Below, piece by piece: positions 11,944-59,074 of a stretch of 64,000 nt of DNA. Where the stretch lies: assembly GCA_001004105.1 (NCBI GenBank), contig LCQK01000003.1, forward strand, positions 46,805-110,804. The letters are read 5' to 3'. The position numbers and the translations under genes are program-made. Under the pieces are notes generated by a model. That model searched no databases, was not told the DNA's origin, and was given only the letters and a program-made list of their open reading frames with translations. Within the stretch, counting starts at the first letter, position 1. The number at the start of each line of letters is the position of its first letter. The stretch is from Candidatus Jorgensenbacteria bacterium GW2011_GWB1_50_10. Its GTDB lineage: Bacteria > Patescibacteriota > Minisyncoccia > UBA6257 > GWB1-50-10.

Positions 11944-11972
11944 TTGACAAGCTTGTATAAATAGGGTATACT
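11944..11972 (+). promoter_or_regulatory. sigma70-like promoter TTGACA-17nt-TATACT upstream of DGR target gene
   Basis: Consensus -35 hexamer at 11944-11949, -10 at 11967-11972. Confidence 0.5.
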
Positions 11973-12053
11973 TTAGGGCAGTACAATAATGGTGAGTCTG
12001 CGGGTCTGGTAAATGCCGGACTGGGGGACGAACCACAAAAAGAGAGGTACAAG

Positions 12054-12749
12054 ATGGCGAAAAAGACGGATGAACTGGTGCAGTTTGCGGGCCACTTCCA
12101 GTCGCTCGCGACTGCGGTTTCCCGCAACCTCGAAGAGCGCGGCGTAAACGTTGTTGAGGCAATCGCGGAGGCCGCAAAGCCGCAAGGCGCTCGGGCGGTC
12201 GCGAAGATCGTAGACGCGCTCGCCGAACTCGTTGAAAACGGCAAGCGGGTCGTCGGCGCTCTCAATCTCATCGTGGCCGACATCGCCGTGAAGACCGAAC
12301 TCTTCACAAAAAATTCGTTCTTCGGCGAGGGGAGCCCAGTAAAACTCTACATCTGGGATAACTTCCGGAACTGGGTACTCACGGCTATCCTTGAGAATAT
12401 ACCTGCGTTCCAGGGTATGCTCGTGAAGCACCAACTCACGAAGGGGATGTATGACTCGGAGATTCTCTCCGGACTCGGGCATCCCACGCCGTTCTCACCA
12501 ACCGAGTTCGCGGCTGTCATTCGCGACCTCATCTCCAAGCAATCGAGAGGCGAGGAGGGCCTTCTCCTCACGAACGGCTACGCCAACATCTTCTATGTAC
12601 AGTTGCCTGCCGGCGCAGGCGGGGAAGATGCACGCGTGGTCGCGGTGCGCGTGACCTGGAACGCCGGGGACGACGACTGGCACCTGGACGCCTACGGCTT
12701 GGACGACGACGGGTGGGGTGACGGTGTCTGCGTGTTCTCTCGCAGCTGA
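12054..12749 (+). CDS. DGR variable (target) protein with C-terminal VR
   Basis: C-terminal 113 nt (12631-12743) near-identical to TR; ends CVFSRS; paralog at 48342-48932; contains degenerate palindrome insert LPAGAG at 12603-12622. Confidence 0.85.
   Translation: MAKKTDELVQFAGHFQSLATAVSRNLEERGVNVVEAIAEAAKPQGARAVAKIVDALAELVENGKRVVGALNLIVADIAVKTELFTKNSFFGEGSPVKLYIWDNFRNWVLTAILENIPAFQGMLVKHQLTKGMYDSEILSGLGHPTPFSPTEFAAVIRDLISKQSRGEEGLLLTNGYANIFYVQLPAGAGGEDARVVAVRVTWNAGDDDWHLDAYGLDDDGWGDGVCVFSRS
12603..12622. repeat. decayed palindrome-family copy TTGCCTGCCGGCGCAGGCGG inside DGR target 1 (encodes LPAGAG absent from paralog)
   Basis: Target 1 reads VQLPAGAGGEDARVVAV where paralog reads [11 protein letters not shown]. 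Confidence 0.5.
12631..12743 (+). repeat. DGR variable repeat (VR)
   Basis: 113-bp alignment to TR 12998-13110 with 14 mismatches, every one at a TR adenine. Confidence 0.9.
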
Positions 12750-12781
12750 TCTCGGATTTTCGGTCTCTTGGCAATAGTAGT

Positions 12782-12824
12782 GCGCCCCGTTCGAGTTCTT
12801 CGGAACTTGGACGGGGCGTTTTTG
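12782..12824 (+). terminator. GC-rich hairpin plus T-tract immediately downstream of VR (terminator and/or DGR homing-associated hairpin)
   Basis: GCGCCCCGTTCGAGTTC-ttcg-GAACTTGGACGGGGCG followed by TTTTTG. Confidence 0.5.
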
Positions 12825-12997
12825 TTATAATAAAAATGAAATTTTTTGACATCACTGCGGTCAAGGCTTCAGTGGGAAGATTTCAAAAAACAGAAAGGTC
12901 AGCTGGTGTAGGGCGCTAACGGGTGCGAAAGACCCGGCATTAGATGCAACGCTTAGAGGAATCAAAGCGCAGTGGCAAGGGCGGCGCTTTACACGAT

Positions 12998-13110
12998 AAC
13001 GCGTGGTCGCGGTGAACGTGAACTGGAACGCCGAGAACGACGACTGGAACCTGAACGCCAACGGCTTGGACGACGACAGGTGGAATGACGGTAACTGCGT
13101 GTTCTCTCGC
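12998..13110 (+). repeat. DGR template repeat (TR)
   Basis: AAC-codon-rich 113-bp copy of VR; all VR differences map to A in this copy. Confidence 0.9.
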
Positions 13111-13125
13111 CGCTTACCTTTTATA

Positions 13126-13461
13126 TCAGTTCTTTGGGAGCTGTTTTAGCCAACCGCCCAGCATTTTTCCAACTTCGTCAACTTTTCCAGAAAGCGCGGC
13201 GTATTTTTTCGTGTCCAGAGATTTGATTTGCCAGGCAATTTGGAGGAAAAATTTTAGTGAGTCAAGTTTAAAAGAGGAATTCCTGATTTTTGCAAACCGT
13301 TCGGCTGGCGTGAGAGGGGCGGCTGAGAAAATTTCTTCGATAATATCCAAGAAAAGCAAATCTACTTTTACGCCGAGAGTATAGCGCGAGGTTTTGGGAA
13401 AATGAGGCGCGAATTCTTGCCAAAGCGTGTAGGCCGCGATTAGTTTCTGAATAATTGGCAG
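13126..13461 (-). CDS. avd: Avd-like accessory variability determinant (four-helix-bundle, TIGR02436-like); start codon uncertain
   Basis: ...FPKTSRYTLGVKVDLLFLDIIEEI...LKFFLQIAWQIKSLDT...VDEVGKMLGGWLKQ pattern; frame open back to 13482 with no ATG/GTG/TTG (ORF table start is TTG at 13359). Confidence 0.6.
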   Translation of the reverse strand: MPIIQKLIAAYTLWQEFAPHFPKTSRYTLGVKVDLLFLDIIEEIFSAAPLTPAERFAKIRNSSFKLDSLKFFLQIAWQIKSLDTKKYAALSGKVDEVGKMLGGWLKQLPKN

Positions 13462-13498
13462 TTCATTCCGTCGGGGGGGGGTTAGAGGACGGGAATTT

Positions 13499-14482
13499 AT
13501 GAAAATTCAATTGAGCCATAAATTCGAAGATATTATTTCACTGGAAAATCTTTTGGAAGCATGGCGAGAATTTTTGCGCGGCAAGAGAAATAAAAGAGAC
13601 GTTCAGGAATTCTCATCGCGTTTAATGGATAACATTCTATTACTTCACAGCGAACTTCGCAATAAAACCTACAAGCACGGGAAGTACGAAGCCTTTAACA
13701 TCTCCGACCCCAAACCGAGAAACATCCACAAAGCCGCCGTCCGCGACCGCCTACTTCATTACGCTATTTACAGGGTTTTATATCCGTTTTTTGATAAGGT
13801 ATTCATCGCCGATTCTTTTTCCTGCCGTTTGGGAAAAGGGACGCACAGAGCCATCAACCGCTTTAGAACTTTTGCTTATAAAGTGAGTAAAAATAATACC
13901 AAAACCTGCTGGGTTTTAAAGTTGGATATTAGGAAATTCTTCGCGAGTATTGACCATGAAATTTTGATAAAAATTCTTGAGGAATACATACCCGACCAAG
14001 ACATTATCTGGTTGCTGAAGAAAGTGATAGAAAGTTTTTATTCGACCGAACCCGGCAAGGGCCTGCCTTTAGGCAATTTAACCTCCCAGCTTTTAGTAAA
14101 TGTTTACATGAACAAGTTTGACCAATTTGTGAAACACAAGTTCAAGGCCAAGTATTACGTGAGATACGCCGATGATTTTGTGATTGTGTCGAAAAACGGA
14201 ATATGGCTTGAAAGTTTAATTCCGAGAATCAGCGAATTTCTAAACAGAGAATTGAAGTTAAAACTTCACGACGATAAGATATTCATTAAAACTTTAGCTT
14301 CGGGAGTAGATTTCCTTGGCTGGGTTCACTTTCCGGATTACCGAGTTCTGCGAACCACGACCAAAAGAAGAATGTTTAAAAGAATCAAAGAACATCCCGC
14401 GCCGGAAACAATAAATTCTTATTTGGGATTATTAAGGCACGGGAACGCTTATAAATTAAAAAGAAAAATTATTGCTGAATAA
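13499..14482 (+). CDS. DGR reverse transcriptase
   Basis: RT motifs incl. YADDFV; motif 4 LGNLTSQ (I/LGxxxSQ hallmark of DGR RTs); 327 aa without maturase/endonuclease domains. Confidence 0.9.
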
Positions 14483-18135: not shown

Positions 18136-18167
18136 AATTTATTTTGAATTTGGAAAGCCAAATTCTT

Positions 18168-19651
<1,484 letters not shown>

Positions 19652-46192: not shown

Positions 46193-46251
46193 TTTAAAGT
46201 TACCTTTGTTATACCCCTATGCACCTTAAGCACGGGGGTCTTATCGCGTTT

Positions 46252-48228
46252 ATGGGTCAATTTCAAATCACAAAAACATTTCAGCCGGACGGTGACCAAC
46301 CAAAAGCGATAAAGGCGCTTGTTGAAGGGCTAAATTATGGTTACGGAAACCAGACGCTTTTGGGCGTGACCGGTTCGGGCAAAACCTTTACGGTTGCAAA
46401 TGTCATCGAAAAAATCGGCAAGCCCACACTCTACATTGCTCACAACAAGACCCTGGCGGCCCAGCTCTGCAATGAGCTCCGGGAGTTTTTTCCGGGAAAT
46501 TCTGTCCATTATTTCGTCTCCTACTACGACTACTATCAGCCGGAGGCCTACATGCCCATAACTGACACTTATATCGGCAAGGAAGCGATGATTAACGACG
46601 AGATAGACAAGTTGCGCCACGCGGCGACAACTGCGCTTTTGACGCGCAATGACGTGATTGTGGTCGCGTCCGTCTCCTGCATTTACGGCCTTGGCGCGCC
46701 CGAGGTTTACGCCGAGAATATCTTCCATTTCAAAGCCGGCGACAAAGTGGACCGTTCCAAATTCGTGCGCAAGCTCGTGGAATTGCAGTTTAAGCGGACG
46801 AGCGCCGACCTGAAACGCGGCACTTTCCGGTTGCGGGGCGACAATTGGGAAATCATGCCGCCGGATCGGGAAGTGATTTACAATCTGGAATTGGAGAAAG
46901 GAAAAATAAAAACCATTTACGAAATTGACCCGGTAAAAGGTTTTCAAAAGGAAAAAACACCCACCCTTTCTGAAATTTACATTGCCCCCGCTAGACATTT
47001 CATCACACCTTTACCGGAGCGCGAGCGGGCGATTAAAGCGATTGAAGCGGAACTTGCAGAGCGGCTGAAATATTTTGAAAGGGAGGGAAAACTGCTTGAG
47101 GCCGAGCGGCTGGAACGCCGGACAAGAGGGGACTTAGCCATGATTCGGGAAATCGGCTACTGCAACGGCATTGAGAATTATTCGCGCCATCTCTCCGGCC
47201 GCCGAGCTGGTGAGCCGCCGGAGACGCTGCTTGATTATTTTCCAAAGGACTTCTTGACCGTGATTGACGAATCGCATGTTACTGTGCCTCAACTTCACGG
47301 TATGTACGAGGGTGATGCCTCGCGGAAGAAAACGCTCATTGAATTCGGTTTCCGGCTGCCTTCCGCCGCCGACAATCGGCCGCTTATGTTTCCGGAATTC
47401 GAAAGCAAAGTGGGGCAGGTAATTTACACTTCGGCGACCCCGGGCCCGTACGAGAGGAGAAAAAGCAATCAGATCGTAGAGCAAATCATCCGGCCGACCG
47501 GTTTGGTTGACCCGGAAATAGTTATTCGACCGGCTCGAGGCCAGGTTGACGATTTGATTCCGAGAATTAAAGAAAGAGTAGACGTGAAAGAGCGCGTTTT
47601 AGTGACCACGCTTACCAAGCGAATGGCCGAAGATTTAAGTTCTTATTTGGAAGAGCAGGGCATTAAAGTGACGTATCTCCACAGCGACGTTAAAACTTTG
47701 GATAGAATCAGGATTTTGACGAATTTGAGAAGAGGTAATTTCGACGTTCTGGTCGGCGTGAATCTGCTCCGCGAAGGACTGGACCTGCCGGAAGTTTCGC
47801 TTGTCGCGATTTTGGACGCGGATAAGGAGGGGTTTCTGCGTTCGGAAACCTCGCTTATCCAGACCATTGGCCGGGCCTCCCGCAATGTCAGTGGCCAAGT
47901 TTTGATTTATGCCGATAACATTACCGGTTCGGTAAAGCGCGCCGTGGATGAAACTGAACGCCGCCGCAAAATCCAGATTGAATATAACTTGCGTCACGGC
48001 ATCACGCCGAAAACAATCGTGAAGAAAATCACCGACATCGTGCCGGTCGAGGAAATCCTGAATTTGGAAATGAAACCCTTGCCGCGCTCTAAAGCGGAAA
48101 TTAAGAAAATAATCGCCGGAAAAGAAAAAGAAATGAGAGAAGCAGCAAGTAGACTTGATTTTGAACTCGCGGCAGTTTTAAGAGATGAAATTAAAGCTTT
48201 ATCTAAGAAGGCGGGGAAGCAGTTTTGA
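46252..48228 (+). CDS. uvrB: excinuclease ABC subunit B
   Basis: GDQP.AI..L start, helicase motifs [13 protein letters not shown]-terminal UVR domain [13 protein letters not shown]. Confidence 0.95.
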
Positions 48229-48341
48229 GAAGTTGACAAGATTAGATTTTTGTGCTAAAGCTTAAACTAGCACGAACTGGCAACCTAAAGCCCCAACGAA
48301 TGTTGAGGGTGAGAGGAAACCATAACAAGGAGAGGCAAAGA

Positions 48342-48932
48342 ATGATGAAGGGAACGAACGGACTCGAGTGGCTTGCGGACCGCTGGCAGTCGGTTGCGAC
48401 TGCAGTTCCCCGCCGCTTTGAGAATCGTGGAGTTAGCGGCGGGGAGGTAATTGCCGCCGTAACCAAGCCCCAGACCAGGAGTATTGTGGTCCAGACCGAG
48501 CCCTTTGCTAAGGACTCGTTCTTTGGGGAGAGCGGTCCCGCGGAGCTCTGCATTTGGGACAACTTCCGAACCCAGGTGCTATCAGCAGTTTCCGAGACCG
48601 TGCCCGCGTTTCGAGGCACGCTCACGAGAACTGAGCTTGAGGAGCACATGGGGGACTCCGAGATTTTCGCCAACGGGACATCCCGGCCGCTCCTCTCGCC
48701 GGACGATTTTGTTGCGGTCGTCCGTGACCTCATCTCCCGCCAGCCGAGAGGTGAGAGGGGAATCCTTCTCACAAACGGGGATGCCAACATCTTCCATGTG
48801 CAGCCGGAGGATGGACCTGTGGTTGCGGTGCGTGGGCGCTGGCGCGTTGGTCTCGGCGGTTGGAGCCTGCGCGCGTATGGCCGGGACGACGTCAGATGGC
48901 TCAAAGGCCACTGCGTGTTCTCCCGCGGCTGA
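48342..48932 (+). CDS. DGR variable-protein paralog (second, diverged target) inserted between uvrB and uvrA
   Basis: Homologous along its length to 12054-12749 (e.g. [36 protein letters not shown]...); ends CVFSRG; start taken at ATG 48342 after AAGGAGAGG. Confidence 0.75.
48819..48926 (+). repeat. diverged VR-like repeat (about 68% identity to TR 13003-13110)
   Basis: 19 of 36 mismatches vs TR at TR adenines; TR AAC codons correspond to CGC/CGT/CTC/AGC/TAT/CAC; 3' GC-clamp CTGCGTGTTCTC conserved. Confidence 0.6.
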
Positions 48933-48966
48933 CCCATCTACCGCAGTTCTCGCAAAGTAGCACAGA

Positions 48967-49008
48967 CAGGCCGCAAGAGGTTTCCTCTTGCGGCCTGTTC
49001 CTGTTTTT
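48967..49008 (+). terminator. 14-bp perfect-stem hairpin CAGGCCGCAAGAGG-ttt-CCTCTTGCGGCCTG plus T-tract downstream of VR2
   Basis: Seen in sequence. Confidence 0.6.
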
Positions 49009-49062
49009 ACTAAACTTGAGATACTACCCCTATATGAACCAAAAAGAGGGGCAGTTTCTGTT

Positions 49063-51588
49063 ATGCAGGACAAAATTGTTATAAAAGGAGCAAGAGAGCA
49101 TAATCTCAAGAACGTCAATCTGGAAATTCCTCGCGACAAAATGGTGGTTTTTACCGGGCTTTCCGGGTCGGGGAAATCCTCGCTGGCTTTTGACACGATT
49201 TTTGCCGAGGGCCAGCGCCGCTACATTGAATCGCTCTCGGCCTATGCCCGGCAGTTTTTAGGTCGTTTGGACAAGCCTGATGTTGACGAAATTGACGGAT
49301 TATCGCCCGCGATTTCCATTGACCAGAAAAGCCATTCTCACAACCCGCGCTCCACGGTCGCGACCGTCACGGAAATTTACGATTATCTCCGCGTTCTTTT
49401 CGCCCGCGTGGGCATTCCCCATTGTCCGAAGTGCGGCCGGGAAATCAAAAAAATGACGAACGAGGAAATTGTGGATACCGTGCTCCGGATTTATCAAAAC
49501 AAAAAATCCGACAAAAACCTCGTGGTTTTGGCGCCGGCTGTCCGCGGCCGGAAAGGGGAATATTATCAGCTCCTTTACGATTTCTTAAACGCCGGTTTTC
49601 GAGAAGCACGCATTGACGGTAAGATTCATAACTTGCGGGAAAGAATTGAGCTTAGCCGTTACAAACAGCACACAATAGAGCTCGTGGTGGATAGATTGCC
49701 TGACGGTTTGGATATGCGCGAGAAGGACAATCGCTTGCGTTTGGCCGAAGCGGTGGAGTCGGCCTTGAAATACGGCAACGATGTTGTAACCGTGATTGCC
49801 GATGAAGAAGAAACTTCGCTCTCCGCCAAATTCACTTGTCCCAACGACAGTTACTCTTTTCCGGAAATAGAGCCGCGACTTTTTTCCTTCAACAGCCCCT
49901 ACGGCGCCTGCGAGGTCTGCCACGGTTTAGGGACGGAGAGCATTTGGTCGGAAAAACCCTGTCCCAAATGTTTAGGCAAGCGTCTGCGAGACGAAGCGTT
50001 AAGTGTTCTCATTGCTGATAAAAGCATTGCCTCGGTTGTGGCAAATTCTATAAGCAACGCCCGTAAATTCTGCGATGAAGTGGAAGGAAAAATTGACGAG
50101 AATTTCAAGGAGGTGGTTTCAGCGCCACTGCGCGAAATCAAAAACCGGCTGAAATTCATGATTGATGTCGGTTTGGAATATCTCACGCTTGAACGGCGAG
50201 CCGGGACGCTCTCGGGCGGCGAAGCTCAGCGTATCCGCCTCGCCTCCCAAATCGGTTCGCGTCTCACCGGCACGCTCTACATATTGGACGAACCGACTAT
50301 CGGTCTTCACCAGCGCGACAACGCGAAACTCATCGCTACTCTCCAAGATTTGCGGGATTTAGGGAACACCGTCCTCGTTGTGGAGCACGACGAGGAAACC
50401 ATCCGCCAGTCGGATTATCTCGTGGACATCGGGCCGGGCGCCGGCGTCCACGGCGGTAAAATCGTGGCCCAAGGGTCGATTCCCGAAATTCTCTCCGACA
50501 AAAAATCCAAGTCGCTCACCATCGATTACCTGAACGGCAGGGAATTCATTCCCGTGCCGGAGAAAAGACGGCCGGTGACGCGGAAGGGCGACTTTTTGGT
50601 GATAAAGGGCGCAAGCGCGAATAATCTGAAAGACATTGACGTGCAAATTCCCTTGCACCGGTTTGTGGCCGTAACCGGTGTTTCCGGCTCAGGAAAAAGT
50701 TCCTTGGTTTATGATGTCATCTACAAAGCGCTCGCCAATGCCTGGAACGGCGCAAATTATAAAGTCGGCGCGCATAAAGGCATGACCGGTTTGGAAAATT
50801 TGAACCGTGTGATTAATATTGACCAGTCGCCGATAGGTCGTACCCCGCGTTCCAATCCAGCCACTTATGTCGGCGCTTGGACTTTTATCCGCGAGCTTTT
50901 TGCCGCAACCGAAGACGCCCGCGTCCGCGGCTACAAGCCGGGACGCTTCAGTTTCAATGTCCGCGGCGGGCGGTGCGAAAACTGTGAAGGCCACGGCACG
51001 ATTGCGATTGAAATGCACTTTTTGCCGACCGTTTACGTCACTTGCGACGTCTGCAAAGGCAAGCGTTTTGATCGCGAGACTCTGGAAGTTGAATATAAAC
51101 ATAAGAACATTTATGACATCTTAAAGATGACCGTGGAGGAAACAGTGGAGTTTTTCCGCGATATTCCCTGGCTTTACGACCGGCTGAAAATTCTGGAAGA
51201 AGTGGGTTTGGGCTATTTAACGCTGGGGCAGTCGGCGACGACTTTGTCTGGCGGCGAGGCCCAGCGGATAAAACTCACGGCCGAACTCGGCAAGCGCGAC
51301 ACTAGGAAAACGATTTATCTTCTTGATGAACCGACGACCGGTCTTCATTTTGCCGACGTTCAGAATCTTTTGAAAGTTTTGGACCGGTTGGTCGCGCGCG
51401 GCAATACTGTTGTTGTGATTGAACATAACTTGGATGTCATCAAGACCGCTGACTGGGTGATTGACTTGGGGCCCGAAGGCGGCGAAAAGGGCGGGGAGAT
51501 GATTGTCGCCGCGCCACCCGAAGGCGTCATGAAAAAAGCCGGTAGTTTTACGGGCGCTTACCTCAAGAAAGCCCTCGCTAAAAAATGA
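49063..51588 (+). CDS. uvrA: excinuclease ABC subunit A
   Basis: [17 protein letters not shown] start; two ABC modules, zinc fingers; 842 aa. Confidence 0.95.
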
Positions 51589-53503: not shown

Positions 53504-55267
53504 ATGTCAGAAACGAGAATTTGCCAGAATTGCAAGCAACAATTCACGATTGAGCCGGACGATTTCGCGTTTTATAAAAAGATAAGCGTCCCGCCACCGA
53601 CGTGGTGCCCGGAGTGCAGGTTAGTGAGAAGGTTAATTGTTCGTAATGAACGGAGTTTGTATAGAAGAATCTGTGATCTTTGTGGAAAAGAGAAAATAAT
53701 GATGTTTTATCCTCAAAGTCCTTTCAAGGTATATTGCTACGAATGTTGGTTTGGCGATAACTGGAATCCAATGGGGTATGGGAAAGAATATGACTTTTCA
53801 CAGCCCTTTTTCGAACAGTTTAGTGATTTGCTCCATGTGGTACCGAGGCCGGGGATTCTAAAACAAGGATTCGCTATTGAGAGTGAATACACCAACCGAG
53901 TCAGCGAAATTAGAAATTGTTATCTTATTTTTGGCTCAACAGCTAGCGAAAACTGTTTTTACGGTTCGTGGGTAAATGATTCTAAAGAATGCGTTGACTG
54001 TTACAACCTCGGCAAATGCGAAAGATGTTATGACTGCACCGATTGTGTCGGTTGCTATAACCTTCAGTACTCTCGTGACTGCCATAGTTGCAGTAATTCT
54101 TATTTTCTTTTGAATTGCCGCAACTGCGAGAGTTGCTTTGGTTGCACGAATCTCCGCAATAAAAGCTACTGTGTTTTTAATAAACAATACGGCAAGGAGG
54201 AATATCAAAAACTACTCGAGGAACACAATTTGAAAAGCTCAGCCGCTATCAAAAGACTCCAGTCCCGGTTCATTTCGGAGCGTTCCAAGCATATTGTGCC
54301 GTCAATAATCCAACATCACAGTACGGATGTAAGCGGTAACTGGATTGAAGAATCCAAGAATGTTCATTACAGCTTCAACTGCCGAAATGTCGAGGATGGT
54401 AAGTACGTACTGGCGGCAGTAATTGCAAAAGATGTAATGGATTATGCTCATTTCGGACGCGGCGTTGAACGTATTTATGATTCAATCAACATTGGCCGCC
54501 AAGCCTCATCCGTCTTTTTTAGCAATGAAAGCTGGGACCAATCTTCAAATTTGCAGTATTGCATGAATTGCCGAGGTTCACAGAACCTTTTCGGGTGCAT
54601 CGGAGTTCGTAACAAAAGTTACTGTATCTTGAACAGGGAATATACCAAAGAAGAATACGAGAAGCTGGTTCCCCGCATTATTGAGCACATGAATACTATG
54701 CCCTACGCCGACAAGAAAGATAGGGTATACAAGTACGGCGAATTTTTCCCGCCGGAAATAACGCCATTCGCTTATAACGAGTCCCTCTCCCAAGAATTTT
54801 TTCCTCTAACAAAAGAAAGAGCGTCAGAACTCGGGTACCGCTGGAAAGATGAAGAGAATCGGAGCTACAAGATAACTGTAAAAAATAACGAAATTCCTGA
54901 TACTATTCGACTTGTTTCCGACGCGATACTCGATGATGTCATTGGCTGCGAACATGGTGGAAAATGCAACGAACAGTGCACGACGGCTTTTAAAATTGTT
55001 CCTCAAGAGCTTAATTTTTATAGACAATTTAATATTCCCCTTCCAAATCTTTGTCCCAACTGCCGTCATTATCAGAGATTAAAACAAAGAAATCCCCTAA
55101 AGCTTTGGCACAGAAAATGTATGTGTGATTACCAGGTTTATAAAAATACGGTGAAGCACGTTCATCATCCGGAAGGAAAGTGCCCGAACGAATTTAAAAC
55201 GTCCTACGCCCCCGAGAGGCCGGAAATCGTCTACTGCGAGCAGTGTTATAATTTCGAGGTAGTATGA
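53504..55267 (+). CDS. cysteine-rich repeat protein (587 aa, many CxxC motifs, Zn-ribbon-like N- and C-terminal modules)
   Basis: N-term CQNCKQQFTIEPDDFAFYKKISVPPPTWCPECR; central CVDCYNLGKCERCYDCTDCVGCYNL...CRNCESCFGCTNLRNKSYC; internal duplication (NKSYCVFNKQYGKEEYQKL / NKSYCILNREYTKEEYEKL); C-term ...LCPNCRHYQRL; TATAAT 12 nt upstream. Confidence 0.6.
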   Translation: MSETRICQNCKQQFTIEPDDFAFYKKISVPPPTWCPECRLVRRLIVRNERSLYRRICDLCGKEKIMMFYPQSPFKVYCYECWFGDNWNPMGYGKEYDFSQPFFEQFSDLLHVVPRPGILKQGFAIESEYTNRVSEIRNCYLIFGSTASENCFYGSWVNDSKECVDCYNLGKCERCYDCTDCVGCYNLQYSRDCHSCSNSYFLLNCRNCESCFGCTNLRNKSYCVFNKQYGKEEYQKLLEEHNLKSSAAIKRLQSRFISERSKHIVPSIIQHHSTDVSGNWIEESKNVHYSFNCRNVEDGKYVLAAVIAKDVMDYAHFGRGVERIYDSINIGRQASSVFFSNESWDQSSNLQYCMNCRGSQNLFGCIGVRNKSYCILNREYTKEEYEKLVPRIIEHMNTMPYADKKDRVYKYGEFFPPEITPFAYNESLSQEFFPLTKERASELGYRWKDEENRSYKITVKNNEIPDTIRLVSDAILDDVIGCEHGGKCNEQCTTAFKIVPQELNFYRQFNIPLPNLCPNCRHYQRLKQRNPLKLWHRKCMCDYQVYKNTVKHVHHPEGKCPNEFKTSYAPERPEIVYCEQCYNFEVV

Positions 55268-56895
55268 TTGCAGAAGAACTTAAAAAAATCGCGGGAGAAA
55301 TAGCGAACGACGCCGAAACACTTGAAAAATACAGCCGGGATGCGAGTTTATTTGAGATTAAGCCGGAGGTAGTTGTTTTTCCGAAGGACGCGGAAGACGT
55401 TAAAAAACTTGTTGCTTTCGTAGGTAAAAACAAGAAAAAGAACAAAAATTTATCGCTCACGCCGAGGGCGGGCGGGAGCGATATGACGGGCGGACCCCTC
55501 ACCGAATCAATTGTCGTTGATTTCAAGCATTTCGACCGTATCAAGGCGATAGGAGACGATTACGCCGTTGCCGAACCCGGCGTTTTTTACCGTGATTTCG
55601 AAAGGGAAACACTAAAGAAAAATTTGATTTTGCCGACCTATCCGGCCTCGCGTGAGATGTGCGCTCTGGGCGGAATGGTCGCGAACAACGCCGCTGGCGA
55701 GAAAACCTTAAAATACGGCAAAACCATTGACTATGTGGAAGAAATCAAAACCGTCCTTGCCGACGGCAAAGAATATCTGATTAAGCCGCTCAATCAGAAA
55801 GAATTGGCTAAGAAGATTAAAGGAAAGGGTTTTGAGAATAAAGTCTACCGTGAGATTTTCCGGTTAATCAAAAGAAATTACGAAATAATCCGGAAAGCAA
55901 AGCCAAGCGTTTCCAAAAATTCAGCAGGGTTAAATCTTTGGGATGTCTGGGACGGCAAAACTTTTGACCTCGTCAAACTTTTCGTCGGTTCCCAGGGGAC
56001 GCTCGGGCTTATTACGGAAGCGAAGCTGCGGCTCGTGCCGGCCGGGAAGTACTCGGGTTTGCTCGTAATTTTCATGAAAGACATGGCGGCTTTACCGGAA
56101 GTCATAAACAAAACTTTGAAATTGAAGCCGGCAAGTTTTGAATCCTTTGACGACCACACCTTCGGACTTGCCCTAAAATTCTTCACCGGCTTTTTGAAAG
56201 TGATGGGCGTGAACATCGTCTCGCTCGGTTTGCAATTTCTGCCCGAATTTTTCCACGTTCTCATAAACGGCATGCCAAAAATGGTTCTTCTTGCCGAATT
56301 TGAAGAAGAAAGCCAGGAAGAAGTGAACCGTAAAATAAGAGAATTAAAGCGTGCCTTGAAACCGTTCGAACTTTCCACCAAAAGCGCACCCACCGCTGAA
56401 TCGTCGAAGAAATACTGGGTGATGCGGCGGGAAAGCTTCAATCTTCTCCGGCACAAGGTGAAAGGGCTGAAAACCGCTCCTTTCATAGACGACGTCATTG
56501 TTCGGCCGGAGCATCTGCCGGAATTCCTGCCCAAACTTTACGAAATTCTGGACCGCTACAAGTTTTTATATACCGTGGCCGGCCACGTCGGCGACGGAAA
56601 TTTCCACATTATTCCGCTTATGGATTTTAACGACCAAAAACAGGTTGACTTGATTCCCAAAGCGGCCGATGAGGTTTATGATTTGGTTTTGCGATACGGC
56701 GGCTCCATCACCGCCGAGCACAATGATGGTTTGATTCGGGGCGCTTATCTTAAAAAGATGTATGGCTCGAAAATCTTCGCTCTTTTCCGGAAAGTCAAAA
56801 AAATATTCGACCCGCAGGATATTTTCAATCCCGGCAAAAAATCCGAGGCGGCAAACCTCAAAACACTTCTTTACAAAAACTTGAGAAAACAATAG
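55264..56895 (+). CDS. FAD-linked oxidase (GlcD/D-lactate dehydrogenase family)
   Basis: FAD-binding PCMH-type domain pattern ...PRAGGSDMTGG... and C-terminal FAD-oxidase_C. Confidence 0.85.
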   Translation: MIAEELKKIAGEIANDAETLEKYSRDASLFEIKPEVVVFPKDAEDVKKLVAFVGKNKKKNKNLSLTPRAGGSDMTGGPLTESIVVDFKHFDRIKAIGDDYAVAEPGVFYRDFERETLKKNLILPTYPASREMCALGGMVANNAAGEKTLKYGKTIDYVEEIKTVLADGKEYLIKPLNQKELAKKIKGKGFENKVYREIFRLIKRNYEIIRKAKPSVSKNSAGLNLWDVWDGKTFDLVKLFVGSQGTLGLITEAKLRLVPAGKYSGLLVIFMKDMAALPEVINKTLKLKPASFESFDDHTFGLALKFFTGFLKVMGVNIVSLGLQFLPEFFHVLINGMPKMVLLAEFEEESQEEVNRKIRELKRALKPFELSTKSAPTAESSKKYWVMRRESFNLLRHKVKGLKTAPFIDDVIVRPEHLPEFLPKLYEILDRYKFLYTVAGHVGDGNFHIIPLMDFNDQKQVDLIPKAADEVYDLVLRYGGSITAEHNDGLIRGAYLKKMYGSKIFALFRKVKKIFDPQDIFNPGKKSEAANLKTLLYKNLRKQ

Positions 56896-56909
56896 ACTGG
56901 TTTTCAATC

Positions 56910-58193
56910 ATGCATAACCGAAAGCGGCTCGTTATTTTCTTGATTGTCTTGGTTCTGATTTCGGCGCTTGCCGCCTTTTTTGCTTACGAGCCGCTCTTCC
57001 AAAGGTGGAGCGGTTTTCGGCCGTGGCGGCTGGGATTGGACTTGGCCGGCGGCACTTATCTCGTTTACGAGGTTGACTTGAGCGGCGTGGCGCAGAGTGA
57101 CCGCGATTCAGTGGTGAAAGGTTTGCGCGACGTGATTGAGCGGCGAGTCAATCTTTTCGGCGTCTCCGAACCAAAGGTTTATTTGGAAACCAGCGGCGGC
57201 ATCAATCGCCTTGTTGTGGAGCTGGCCGGCATTAAGGATGTGAGCGCCGCCATCGCCCAAATTGGGGAAACGCCTTTCCTAGATTTCCGTGAGGTAATTG
57301 AAGGCCAAGAAGTGGTAGACGGCGAGGCGACGACAACCGCGAATATTGTCCCGACTGAACTTACTGGCCGCTACGTCAAGGGCGCCCAGCTCGGTTTTGA
57401 TTCGGTGAGCGGTCAGCCCCAGATTTATCTTCAGTTCACCGACGAGGGCGCCAAAATCTTTGAAGAAGTGACCGGCCGCAACGTCGGCAAGCCGCTCTGC
57501 ATATTCTTGGACAATCAAATCCGGAGCTTTGAAGAGGACTGCCCGATCGTGCAGGCGAAGATTTCCGGCGGCAACGCCCAAATTACCGGCCGGTTTACGA
57601 CCGCCGAGGCGCGGCAGATCGTTGAAAGATTCAACGCCGGAGCCTTGCCCGCGCCCATCAAGCTCATCAATCAGCAAACAATAAGCGCCGACTTCGGCAA
57701 GGATTCCCTCACTAAGGCGGTTTTTGCCGGCGCCATCGGCACCGCCGTCGTCATTCTTTTCATGCTTATTTATTACCGCCGCCTTGGGATTTTCGCCGCC
57801 GCCGCGCTTCTCATGTATGTTGCTCTCACGCTCGGCGTTTTTAAAATCATTCCCGTTACCATGACTTTGGCGGGCATTGCCGGTTTCATTCTTTCCATCG
57901 GCATGGCCGTTGACGCGAACATTCTTGTTTTCGAGCGGACCAAGGAAGAAATCAAAAAGGGTCTTTCCAAAACCGCGGCGATTGAAGAAGGTTTCCGCCG
58001 AGCCTGGACTTCCATCCGCGATTCCAATGTGAGCACGATGATCACTTCGGCCGTGCTCTATTATTTCACTTCCAGTTTCGTGAAAGGATTCGCCCTCGCC
58101 CTATTCCTCGGCGTCGTCGTTTCCATGTTTTCCGCGATCACGATAACGAGGGTGCTGCTCCGGGTTTTCACCAAGGACATTCCAAAAACATGA
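56910..58193 (+). CDS. secD: protein translocase subunit SecD
   Basis: LGLDLAGGTYLVYEVD start of periplasmic domain; 6 TM C-terminal. Confidence 0.9.
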   Translation: MHNRKRLVIFLIVLVLISALAAFFAYEPLFQRWSGFRPWRLGLDLAGGTYLVYEVDLSGVAQSDRDSVVKGLRDVIERRVNLFGVSEPKVYLETSGGINRLVVELAGIKDVSAAIAQIGETPFLDFREVIEGQEVVDGEATTTANIVPTELTGRYVKGAQLGFDSVSGQPQIYLQFTDEGAKIFEEVTGRNVGKPLCIFLDNQIRSFEEDCPIVQAKISGGNAQITGRFTTAEARQIVERFNAGALPAPIKLINQQTISADFGKDSLTKAVFAGAIGTAVVILFMLIYYRRLGIFAAAALLMYVALTLGVFKIIPVTMTLAGIAGFILSIGMAVDANILVFERTKEEIKKGLSKTAAIEEGFRRAWTSIRDSNVSTMITSAVLYYFTSSFVKGFALALFLGVVVSMFSAITITRVLLRVFTKDIPKT

Positions 58194-59074
58194 TTGACGT
58201 CATCAAACATAAAAATATATACCTCGGTGTTTCTTTGGCGCTCGTCGTTTTGAGCTGGGCTTTGGTCGGTTTCCTAGGTTTGAAGCCGGGCATTGATTTG
58301 GTTGGCGGCACGGTCTGGCAGATTGACGCGCCGGAGGCGGATTTGGATGAAGTGCGGTCGGTTTTGAACGAAAATGGAGCGGCGGATTTTCAGATCAAGA
58401 TTGCGGGCGACGGCAGCTTCATTATCCGGTTGAAGGATTTGAGCGAAGAAAATCACCAAGGTTACTTGAGAGCGCTCCAGGATGAATTTCCCGCCGTAAC
58501 CGAGATGAATTTCTCGAGCATCGGCCCGACCATCGGCTCGGAACTCCGCCGAAGCTCCATTTGGGCGATTATTCTGGTTTTAATCGGCATCTCGCTCTAC
58601 GTCGCTTTCGCTTTCCGGAAAGTTTCCGAACCGGTCAAATCCTGGAAATACGGTTTGATTACTCTCCTTACGCTCCTTCATGACGTGAGCATTCCGGCCG
58701 GCCTTTTGGCCGTTTTGGGTGAGTGGAAAGGAATTGAGATAGACACCAATTTCATTGTCGCCCTTCTCGTGGTAATGGGCTTTTCCGTCCACGACACGAT
58801 AGTCGTTTTCGACCGGGTTCGGGAAAATCTTCAGCTTTTCCGCGGGCGCAACACGCCATTGGGTGAAATTGTGAACCGAAGCGTCAATGAAACCATAGCC
58901 CGCTCAATCAACACGTCGCTCACGCTGGTCCTTGTTCTTTTGGCGCTCATGGTTTTCGGTCCCGCCCCGCTTTTCTATTTTGTTCTTACGATTCTCTTCG
59001 GCACCGTCGTCGGCACCTATTCCTCCATTTTCGTCGCTAGCCCTATGCTGTACCTTTGGCAGAAAAAGAGGTGA
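58190..59074 (+). CDS. secF: protein translocase subunit SecF
   Basis: GIDLVGGTVWQIDA..., SecF TM core. Confidence 0.9.
   Translation: MIDVIKHKNIYLGVSLALVVLSWALVGFLGLKPGIDLVGGTVWQIDAPEADLDEVRSVLNENGAADFQIKIAGDGSFIIRLKDLSEENHQGYLRALQDEFPAVTEMNFSSIGPTIGSELRRSSIWAIILVLIGISLYVAFAFRKVSEPVKSWKYGLITLLTLLHDVSIPAGLLAVLGEWKGIEIDTNFIVALLVVMGFSVHDTIVVFDRVRENLQLFRGRNTPLGEIVNRSVNETIARSINTSLTLVLVLLALMVFGPAPLFYFVLTILFGTVVGTYSSIFVASPMLYLWQKKR

Follow-up and report, generated by a model that had tools for sequence, protein, structure and literature searches.

Non-adjacent, or remote, targets have been documented for DGRs, and at least two DGRs are present in about 10% of the genomes that bear any (Wu et al. 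2018, PMC5758913). In that survey, the Treponema DGR that includes TvpA appears with seven non-adjacent targets, and remote targets are recognised by differences from the template repeat (TR) that are restricted to A-to-N changes. The C-type-lectin and FGE-like DGR variable proteins Mtd, TvpA (2Y3C) and TaqVP are among the closest known systems to the locus considered here. We have analysed a window of 64 kb, the whole stretch of 64,000 nucleotides taken from Candidatus Jorgensenbacteria bacterium GW2011_GWB1_50_10, which contains a complete DGR cassette and, between uvrB and uvrA, a paralog of the target of that cassette. On balance, we regard this paralog as probably an orphaned ('solo') former target of a CPR-type DGR, which is no longer diversified and whose variable region (VR) has become frozen.

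The cassette at positions 11944–14482 provides the reference. Its bona fide target (target 1; 12054–12749, plus strand) contains a variable region, VR1, at 12636–12743, and is flanked by a plus-strand promoter TTGACA-17-TATACT (11944–11972), recovered in a promoter scan with 11 of 12 matches, and by a terminator hairpin on the same strand (12782–12819). These elements are followed by the TR (13003–13110, plus strand), where homology to VR1 begins at 12999, by an Avd-like accessory gene on the minus strand (13126–13497; Pfam bAvd, 1.8e-10) and by the DGR reverse transcriptase (RT) gene on the plus strand (13499–14482; RVT_1, 9.7e-27). TR and VR1 show 13 mismatches, all of them at TR adenines and none at the 82 non-adenines, and since they differ at adenines alone the local DGR has acted recently. 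The Avd-like gene is open for 123 codons and shows no ATG, GTG or TTG near its start; the start region reads ATAAAT in the window where a relative with a decayed cassette (L010) carries ATGAAC, and a G8 homopolymer lies at about 13473–13480, just downstream of the start position within the gene. The window also contains a 16S rRNA gene (18166–19651).

A previous reading made from the letters alone (the sequence-only reading) had described the gene at 48342–48932 as homologous to target 1 from end to end, with the same CVFSR ending, and this description is borne out. The gene is an intact plus-strand ORF of 196 aa, preceded by a ribosome-binding site AAGGAG (48327–48332, plus strand) that is directly readable 9 nt 5' of the ATG, and its product aligns with target 1 over the full length at 46% amino acid identity (BLASTP, E 3e-61), with a single gap of 29 aa in the N-terminal part of the paralog. 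Both proteins terminate in ...CVFSR plus one residue, followed by TGA. The E value and the retention of 29 of the 34 family-conserved columns place the paralog in the CPR family of small variable proteins defined by the homologs of 12054–12749. It is identical to KKW14877.1 of Candidatus Jorgensenbacteria bacterium GW2011_GWB1_50_10, and near-identical copies are present in other MAGs from the Rifle aquifer as well as in raw assemblies. The near-invariant Tyr147 is replaced by Asp, altering the family motif LLTNGYANIFY, and the AF2 model shows a core spanning residues 45–196 with pLDDT >90. Because 29 of 34 conserved columns have been kept, the paralog is a diverging yet still foldable protein and no obvious wreck.

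Neither Pfam nor NCBIfam returned a family match for the paralog or its family, and no significant match to its fold or family was found with Foldseek against the PDB or with an HMM search of PDB sequences. In a phmmer search of 1.84 billion cluster representatives, the family comprised 639 representatives at E <= 1e-3, of which 99 reached E <= 1e-10; the top match of this search, the 7571-aa protein P0165 with 107 stretches, was rejected as a repetitive artefact. Another protein, P0180 (926 aa), contains five tandem copies of the family domain, each with a VFS-type C-terminal motif, and looks related to the small variable proteins, in a multi-domain form. P0029, found on ENA contigs of <=1.4 kb, carries a near-identical version of residues 1–65 of target 1 and of its translated 5' leader, fused to an unrelated C-terminal domain. 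To judge from this fusion, the N-terminal helical part may be a module that can be separated from the rest; some of it is missing from the paralog at 48342.

The VR-like segment of the paralog, VR2 (48819–48926, plus strand), occupies the 3'-terminal part of the ORF and ends 6 nt before the stop codon. Its 3' boundary, …TCCCGCGGCTGACC / GGCTGACC, follows the family VR pattern (TGA) and not the TR pattern (TTA), and a hairpin is located downstream. According to the sequence-only reading, VR2 was about 68% identical to the TR, with 19 mismatches at adenines and 17 at other sites, and had diverged too far to be templated by the local TR. Our recount against TR 13003–13110 gave the same 36 mismatches in 108 nt (67% identity), affecting 19 of the 26 TR adenines and 17 of the 82 non-adenines, an enrichment at adenines with a Fisher p of 2e-6; displacing the alignment frame by 4 nt yielded 37 mismatches (19 + 18). 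The NNC-type pattern reported at former AAC codons was likewise recovered, the codons at TR AAC/AAT sites being CGT, CGC, CGC, CTC, AGC, CGC, TAT, CTC and CAC.

The meaning of these counts was assessed by means of TR/VR pairs of the same family taken from other organisms. Genuine pairs (those of the window, L002 and L007, and the VR of L001 against the TR of L002) have no mismatch at non-adenines, against 17 in VR2, and the local TR therefore cannot be the template of VR2, as the sequence-only reading had judged. Foreign VRs compared with the window TR mismatch at 12–20 of the 82 non-adenines and 15–23 of the 26 adenines, and VR2 falls in the middle of both ranges; the family TRs are mutually 77–84% identical, and 22 adenines are invariant in the four TRs. 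Since foreign VRs mismatch the window TR equally, VR2 is tied no more closely to the local TR than they are. The adenine bias is real, but it is not specific evidence of such a tie, and reflects conservation at the level of the family instead of a relationship with the local TR. Moreover, the non-A mismatches of VR2 are distributed over its entire length, the last of them 14 nt from the 3' end, so that partial conversion has not taken place either. By the A-to-N-only rule of DGR surveys (Wu et al. 2018, PMC5758913), the paralog would not be counted as a target of the visible DGR (12999–14482), with 17 of 82 non-adenines altered in VR2 and 0 of 82 in VR1.

Three independent signs nevertheless point to VR2 having once been diversified by adenine mutagenesis. 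The eight canonical AAY codons, which are AAY in every family TR, all read NNY in VR2 (CGT CGC CGC AGC CGC TAT CTC CAC), compared with a terminal pyrimidine in 15 of the 28 other VR2 codons (p = 0.03). Adenines make up 9.3% of VR2 and 19.7% of the scaffold of the same gene, a drop like that of the active VR1 (12.0% against 22.5%). Finally, non-A positions appear conserved at the nucleotide level, as third-codon-position identity to target 1 falls from 0.68 in the VR to 0.45 in the scaffold (p = 0.017), which argues for nucleotide-level templating by a family-type TR and not for protein-level selection alone. These observations bear directly on the alternative that the paralog was never a DGR target and resembles a mutated TR simply through family homology at freely varying surface positions. 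That any foreign family member gives the same A-biased pattern against the local TR is compatible with such an origin, and family members for which neither RT nor TR turned up in the flanking sequence read account for much of the small set of contexts inspected. Against such an origin stand the third-position pyrimidine kept at eight of eight canonical AAY codons, a VR with half the adenine content of its own scaffold, as in active VR1, and the higher identity of the VR at synonymous positions, and we consider it very unlikely that the paralog was never diversified. As to what happened after diversification, VR2 deviates from family-invariant non-A TR positions at 15–20% of sites and active VRs at 9–11%, a modest difference based on small numbers. 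The use of these deviations as a drift clock was rejected, its naive version being circular and a leave-one-out version showing a weak excess.

The position of the paralog within the uvr gene string had been noted as unexpected, and the spacing of uvrB and uvrA in relatives shows that it results from a lineage-specific insertion. In the window, uvrB (46219–48228, plus strand; identified from the Pfam families of the called gene and from homologs) and uvrA (49063–51588, plus strand; true start at ATG 49063, from which the N-terminus aligns with the UvrA of L005) are separated by 834 nt (48229–49062, plus strand), and in relatives the two genes overlap or abut. In L005, the closest relative found (UvrB 92% identical), uvrA starts 11 nt before the end of uvrB; the same 11-nt overlap occurs in Jorgensenbacteria GWA1_49_17 (L014; UvrB 82%), and the spacing is 1 nt in L007 (UvrB 76%). 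In L006 (UvrB 88%), uvrB is followed by a minus-strand PaaX-like gene, with neither uvrA nor the paralog adjacent. The inserted module consists of a promoter-like site, a 5' UTR, the gene, a terminator and a new uvrA leader, and it begins 4 nt after the uvrB stop codon, at a −35 box TTGACA (48233). As a consequence of the insertion the ancestral uvrB-uvrA overlap has been removed and a strong terminator hairpin now stands directly 5' of uvrA, and no convincing promoter was seen in the 64 nt that precede the uvrA ATG (49000–49062).

The GC content of the insert is 0.62 and that of the window 0.49, and since target 1 is similarly GC-rich (0.60) this composition reflects the family and not a foreign origin. 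Third-position identity between the scaffolds of paralog and target 1 is 0.45, lower than the 0.66 observed between uvrB and its counterpart in the insert-free L005, so that the split between the paralogs is older than the insertion and a gene that had already diverged moved in, either from another part of the genome or from an organism related to it. A search for target-site duplications or inverted repeats at the insert borders gave short repeats at chance level alone, and no integrase, transposase or other mobility gene is present in the 834-nt insert. Viral relatives of the paralog were found neither in IMG/VR nor among BFVD folds. Transport as cargo of a mobile element or prophage was consequently rejected, given the lack of convincing flanking repeats, of a mobility gene and of IMG/VR relatives, as was a viral origin of the paralog on account of the IMG/VR and BFVD searches. 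The same junction carries a different insertion in Jorgensenbacteria GW2011_GWA1_48_11 (L015, 7001–9106), composed of a pair of genes on the minus strand (122 and 308 aa), neither with a Pfam match, and the uvrB-uvrA junction seems to be prone to insertion.

The expression signals of the module are those of the family, in a partly weakened form. According to an alignment of upstream flanks, all family members carry TTGACA-N17-TAnAnT about 100 nt upstream. At the equivalent position of the paralog (48233–48261, plus strand), an intact −35 box (TTGACA, 48233–48238) and a 17-nt spacer precede a degenerate −10 box, TAAAGC (48256–48261), in which the final T has been lost, and the promoter scan that detected the target 1 promoter with 11 of 12 matches missed this one. 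Downstream of the gene, a terminator-like hairpin (48966–48998, plus strand) with a perfect 15-bp stem, a 3-nt loop and a T-rich tail folds at −36.2 kcal/mol (z = −7.2), and its distance from the stop codon equals that in target 1. A search for structured RNAs gave no Rfam match in the 5' UTR of the paralog or in the sequence on either side. In canonical cassettes the terminator is immediately followed by a conserved element, TTTTTGTTATAATAAAAATGAAATTTTTTGACATC...GGCTTC...GTTTCAA, which leads into the TR; this post-terminator element is absent downstream of VR2 and of the other solo members.

The scaffold of the paralog has evolved faster than that of target 1. When a tree is built from the non-VR core, the two proteins pair with each other and the branch of the paralog is about 1.6x longer; relative-rate counts on the scaffold assign 28–37 unique substitutions to the paralog and 8–15 to target 1, an excess of 2.5–3.5x with p = 2e-4 to 6e-3 for every outgroup save P0002, the protein of L010. 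Together with the replacement of Tyr147 by Asp, the loss of 29 aa and the degenerate −10 box, this fast scaffold indicates that the constraint on the paralog has been relaxed or has changed.

Variation among near-identical strains was analysed in four loci (L003, L004, L017 and L018), of which L003 and L004 span 20.6 kb. Over these 20.6 kb of otherwise identical DNA, differences are confined to the 5' end of the paralog (48335–48410, plus strand). They comprise an in-frame deletion of 45 bp (48335–48379) that removes both ATGs in GCA_001003525.1 and a G>T SNP at 48385 (TGG>TTG, W15L), together with a run of Ns at about 48376–48410 in GCA_001003655.1 that corresponds to an assembly gap. Position 10036 of L003, as well as L017 and L018, belong with this polymorphism. 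As deletion and SNP in combination place a TTG 6 nt after the ribosome-binding site, a protein shorter by 14 residues might still be made. VR2 is identical at the protein level in five database entries and at the DNA level in the four strain loci. This invariance was rejected as evidence of inactivity: the strains are near-clonal, with 1 SNP in 20 kb, and the active target 1 protein is just as constant, being identical on 10 contigs, which renders an invariant VR2 uninformative. The pattern of a variable 5' end and a constant VR2 is the reverse of the one expected from an active VR, and is weak evidence.

These strain data touch upon the possibility that the paralog is a decaying pseudogene, that is, the same orphan in a state no longer functional and not yet interrupted. 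The 45-bp deletion has deprived one strain of both ATG start codons, the sole strain-level differences in 20 kb fall within the paralog, and the degenerate −10 box, the Tyr147 replacement and the accelerated substitution would all be in keeping with decay. Against this, no strain shows an interruption of the 196-codon ORF, the deletion preserves the reading frame and with the SNP places a TTG 6 nt from the ribosome-binding site, and a confidently predicted core retains 29 of the 34 conserved columns. A pseudogene therefore appears a highly improbable explanation, and an orphaned gene encoding an intact protein remains the reading that we prefer.

Nine contexts of family members were inspected besides that of the paralog. 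In four of them (the window, L002, L007/8 and L009) the TR adjoins the target in a cassette, and in one (L010, protein P0002) the cassette has decayed, with the TR and most of avd deleted and the RT truncated after 34 aa, leaving the spacer and 54 aa of Avd. In three others (L011, L012/13 and L016), neither RT nor TR was found within flanks of 4–6 kb, and the context of L001 was uninformative. P0008 and target 1 rank first in core identity to the paralog (0.42), P0002 being second-closest (0.41), and the ...CVFSRG* ending is common to the paralog, P0002 and P0026. Cassettes of this family are located at genome rearrangement breakpoints. In L007 (7919–15810), a relative from Hainich, the interval between the FAD-oxidase gene and secD, which follows uvrABC at a distance of a few kb, contains a full cassette, tgt and two other genes; the FAD-oxidase gene and secD are adjacent in the window (55264–58200). 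L009 joins the FAD-oxidase gene to the cassette and continues with RF-1, SLT and L25, as at the DGR locus of the window. Positions 1–3600 of L009 are 100% identical to L007 (8883–12480) to just past the target terminator, and about 78% identical from there on (TR, avd and RT); the VR of L009 correspondingly shows 0 non-A mismatches with the TR of L007 and 12 with its own neighbouring TR. L009 is either a chimeric contig joined at the post-terminator element or the product of real recombination between two cassettes.

The contexts described above are relevant to the possibility that the paralog is an active remote target, diversified in trans by a second TR (TR2) located elsewhere in the genome, with or without an RT of its own. 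An intact ORF with its ribosome-binding site, an A-depleted VR with the NNY signature, a VR-type 3' end and a strong hairpin are what a live target would present, remote targets and genomes with several DGRs are documented (Wu et al. 2018, PMC5758913), and diversification in trans could also explain the three other members with no RT or TR in their read flanks. When VR2 was slid along both strands of the 64-kb window no second TR was encountered, the next best match after the TR being VR1 with 28 non-A mismatches; most of the genome lies outside this window. The collections genome_contigs and metagenome_contigs were also scanned with TGGNNNNNNGGNNNCTGCGTGTTCTCYCGC, a pattern built for VR1, TR, VR2 and any TR2, which detected one foreign locus in each and none of the three sites of the window, these collections not including the present genome. 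Besides the failure to find TR2 within 64 kb, the accelerated scaffold branch, the loss of a near-invariant Tyr and the absence of the post-terminator element conserved in cassettes count against activity in trans. In addition, if a second cassette existed with a target of its own beside it, another family member from these MAGs would probably have come to light, and among the billions of proteins searched none is assigned to them beyond target 1 and the paralog. We consider an active remote target unlikely, if by no means far-fetched.

Our preferred reading, the orphaned former target, would involve the following course of events. The paralog would have been diversified at one time by a family TR other than the one at 13003–13110. 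Later it would have been placed between uvrB and uvrA as a promoter-to-terminator module devoid of TR, avd and RT, and from then on its variable region would have stayed frozen in one state. The protein, which is intact, would probably be expressed from its own weakened promoter or through read-through from uvrB, and it might act as a binding protein of fixed specificity, diversification presumably having stopped. Precedents for such a history are provided by the decayed cassette of L010 and by L011, L012/13 and L016, where RT and TR are missing from the read flanks. Among the options left by the sequence-only reading, an old target that drifted and a target fixed after diversification are accordingly the ones favoured. 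Counting against an orphan are the intact ORF, the ribosome-binding site, the hairpin and the 29 of 34 retained columns, which fit a live target equally, as well as a TR search that covers the 64-kb window and a drift signal that is weak.

Solo copies such as the paralog may be more than debris. They might constitute a second tier of the DGR system, formed by duplicates that have escaped from the TR by divergence and relocation, so that a useful binding specificity would be archived unchanged as the cassette-linked copy keeps exploring. The three members with no RT or TR in their read flanks and the intact ORF of the paralog are compatible with this proposal, which we nonetheless consider quite unlikely. 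In a more general sense, the paralog, these three members and the decayed cassette taken together suggest that CPR variable-protein genes often outlive or leave their retroelement. Since DGR surveys require A-only differences from the TR, paralogs such as 48342–48932 would be invisible to them. These data bear on how often DGR-generated specificities become fixed, and on the estimates of DGR activity and target numbers obtained from metagenomes. Taken as a single locus, in a small uncharacterised family of an uncultivated lineage, this is a modest and fairly ordinary result.

In comparison with the known systems, the locus combines features of several of them. Like the documented remote DGR targets, it is a paralog of a cassette-adjacent variable protein that lies tens of kb from the RT and bears its VR at the 3' end of the ORF, but unlike them it shows 17 non-A mismatches to the only visible TR. 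The canonical CPR cassette is found in the window (11944–14482) and, in Hainich groundwater, in L002, L007 and L009. Features that the locus has in common with it are the protein family, the promoter architecture, a leader of about 100 nt, a C-terminal ...CVFSR VR, a TGA-containing 3' end and the terminator hairpin; the locus differs in having neither TR, avd and RT nor the post-terminator element and the 29-aa N-terminal segment, and in its faster branch. The decayed cassette of L010 is a wreck that has remained in place, whereas the paralog has moved, or has arrived, without any cassette remnant. In both cases, a variable-protein gene with the ...CVFSRG* ending has outlasted a usable TR and RT.
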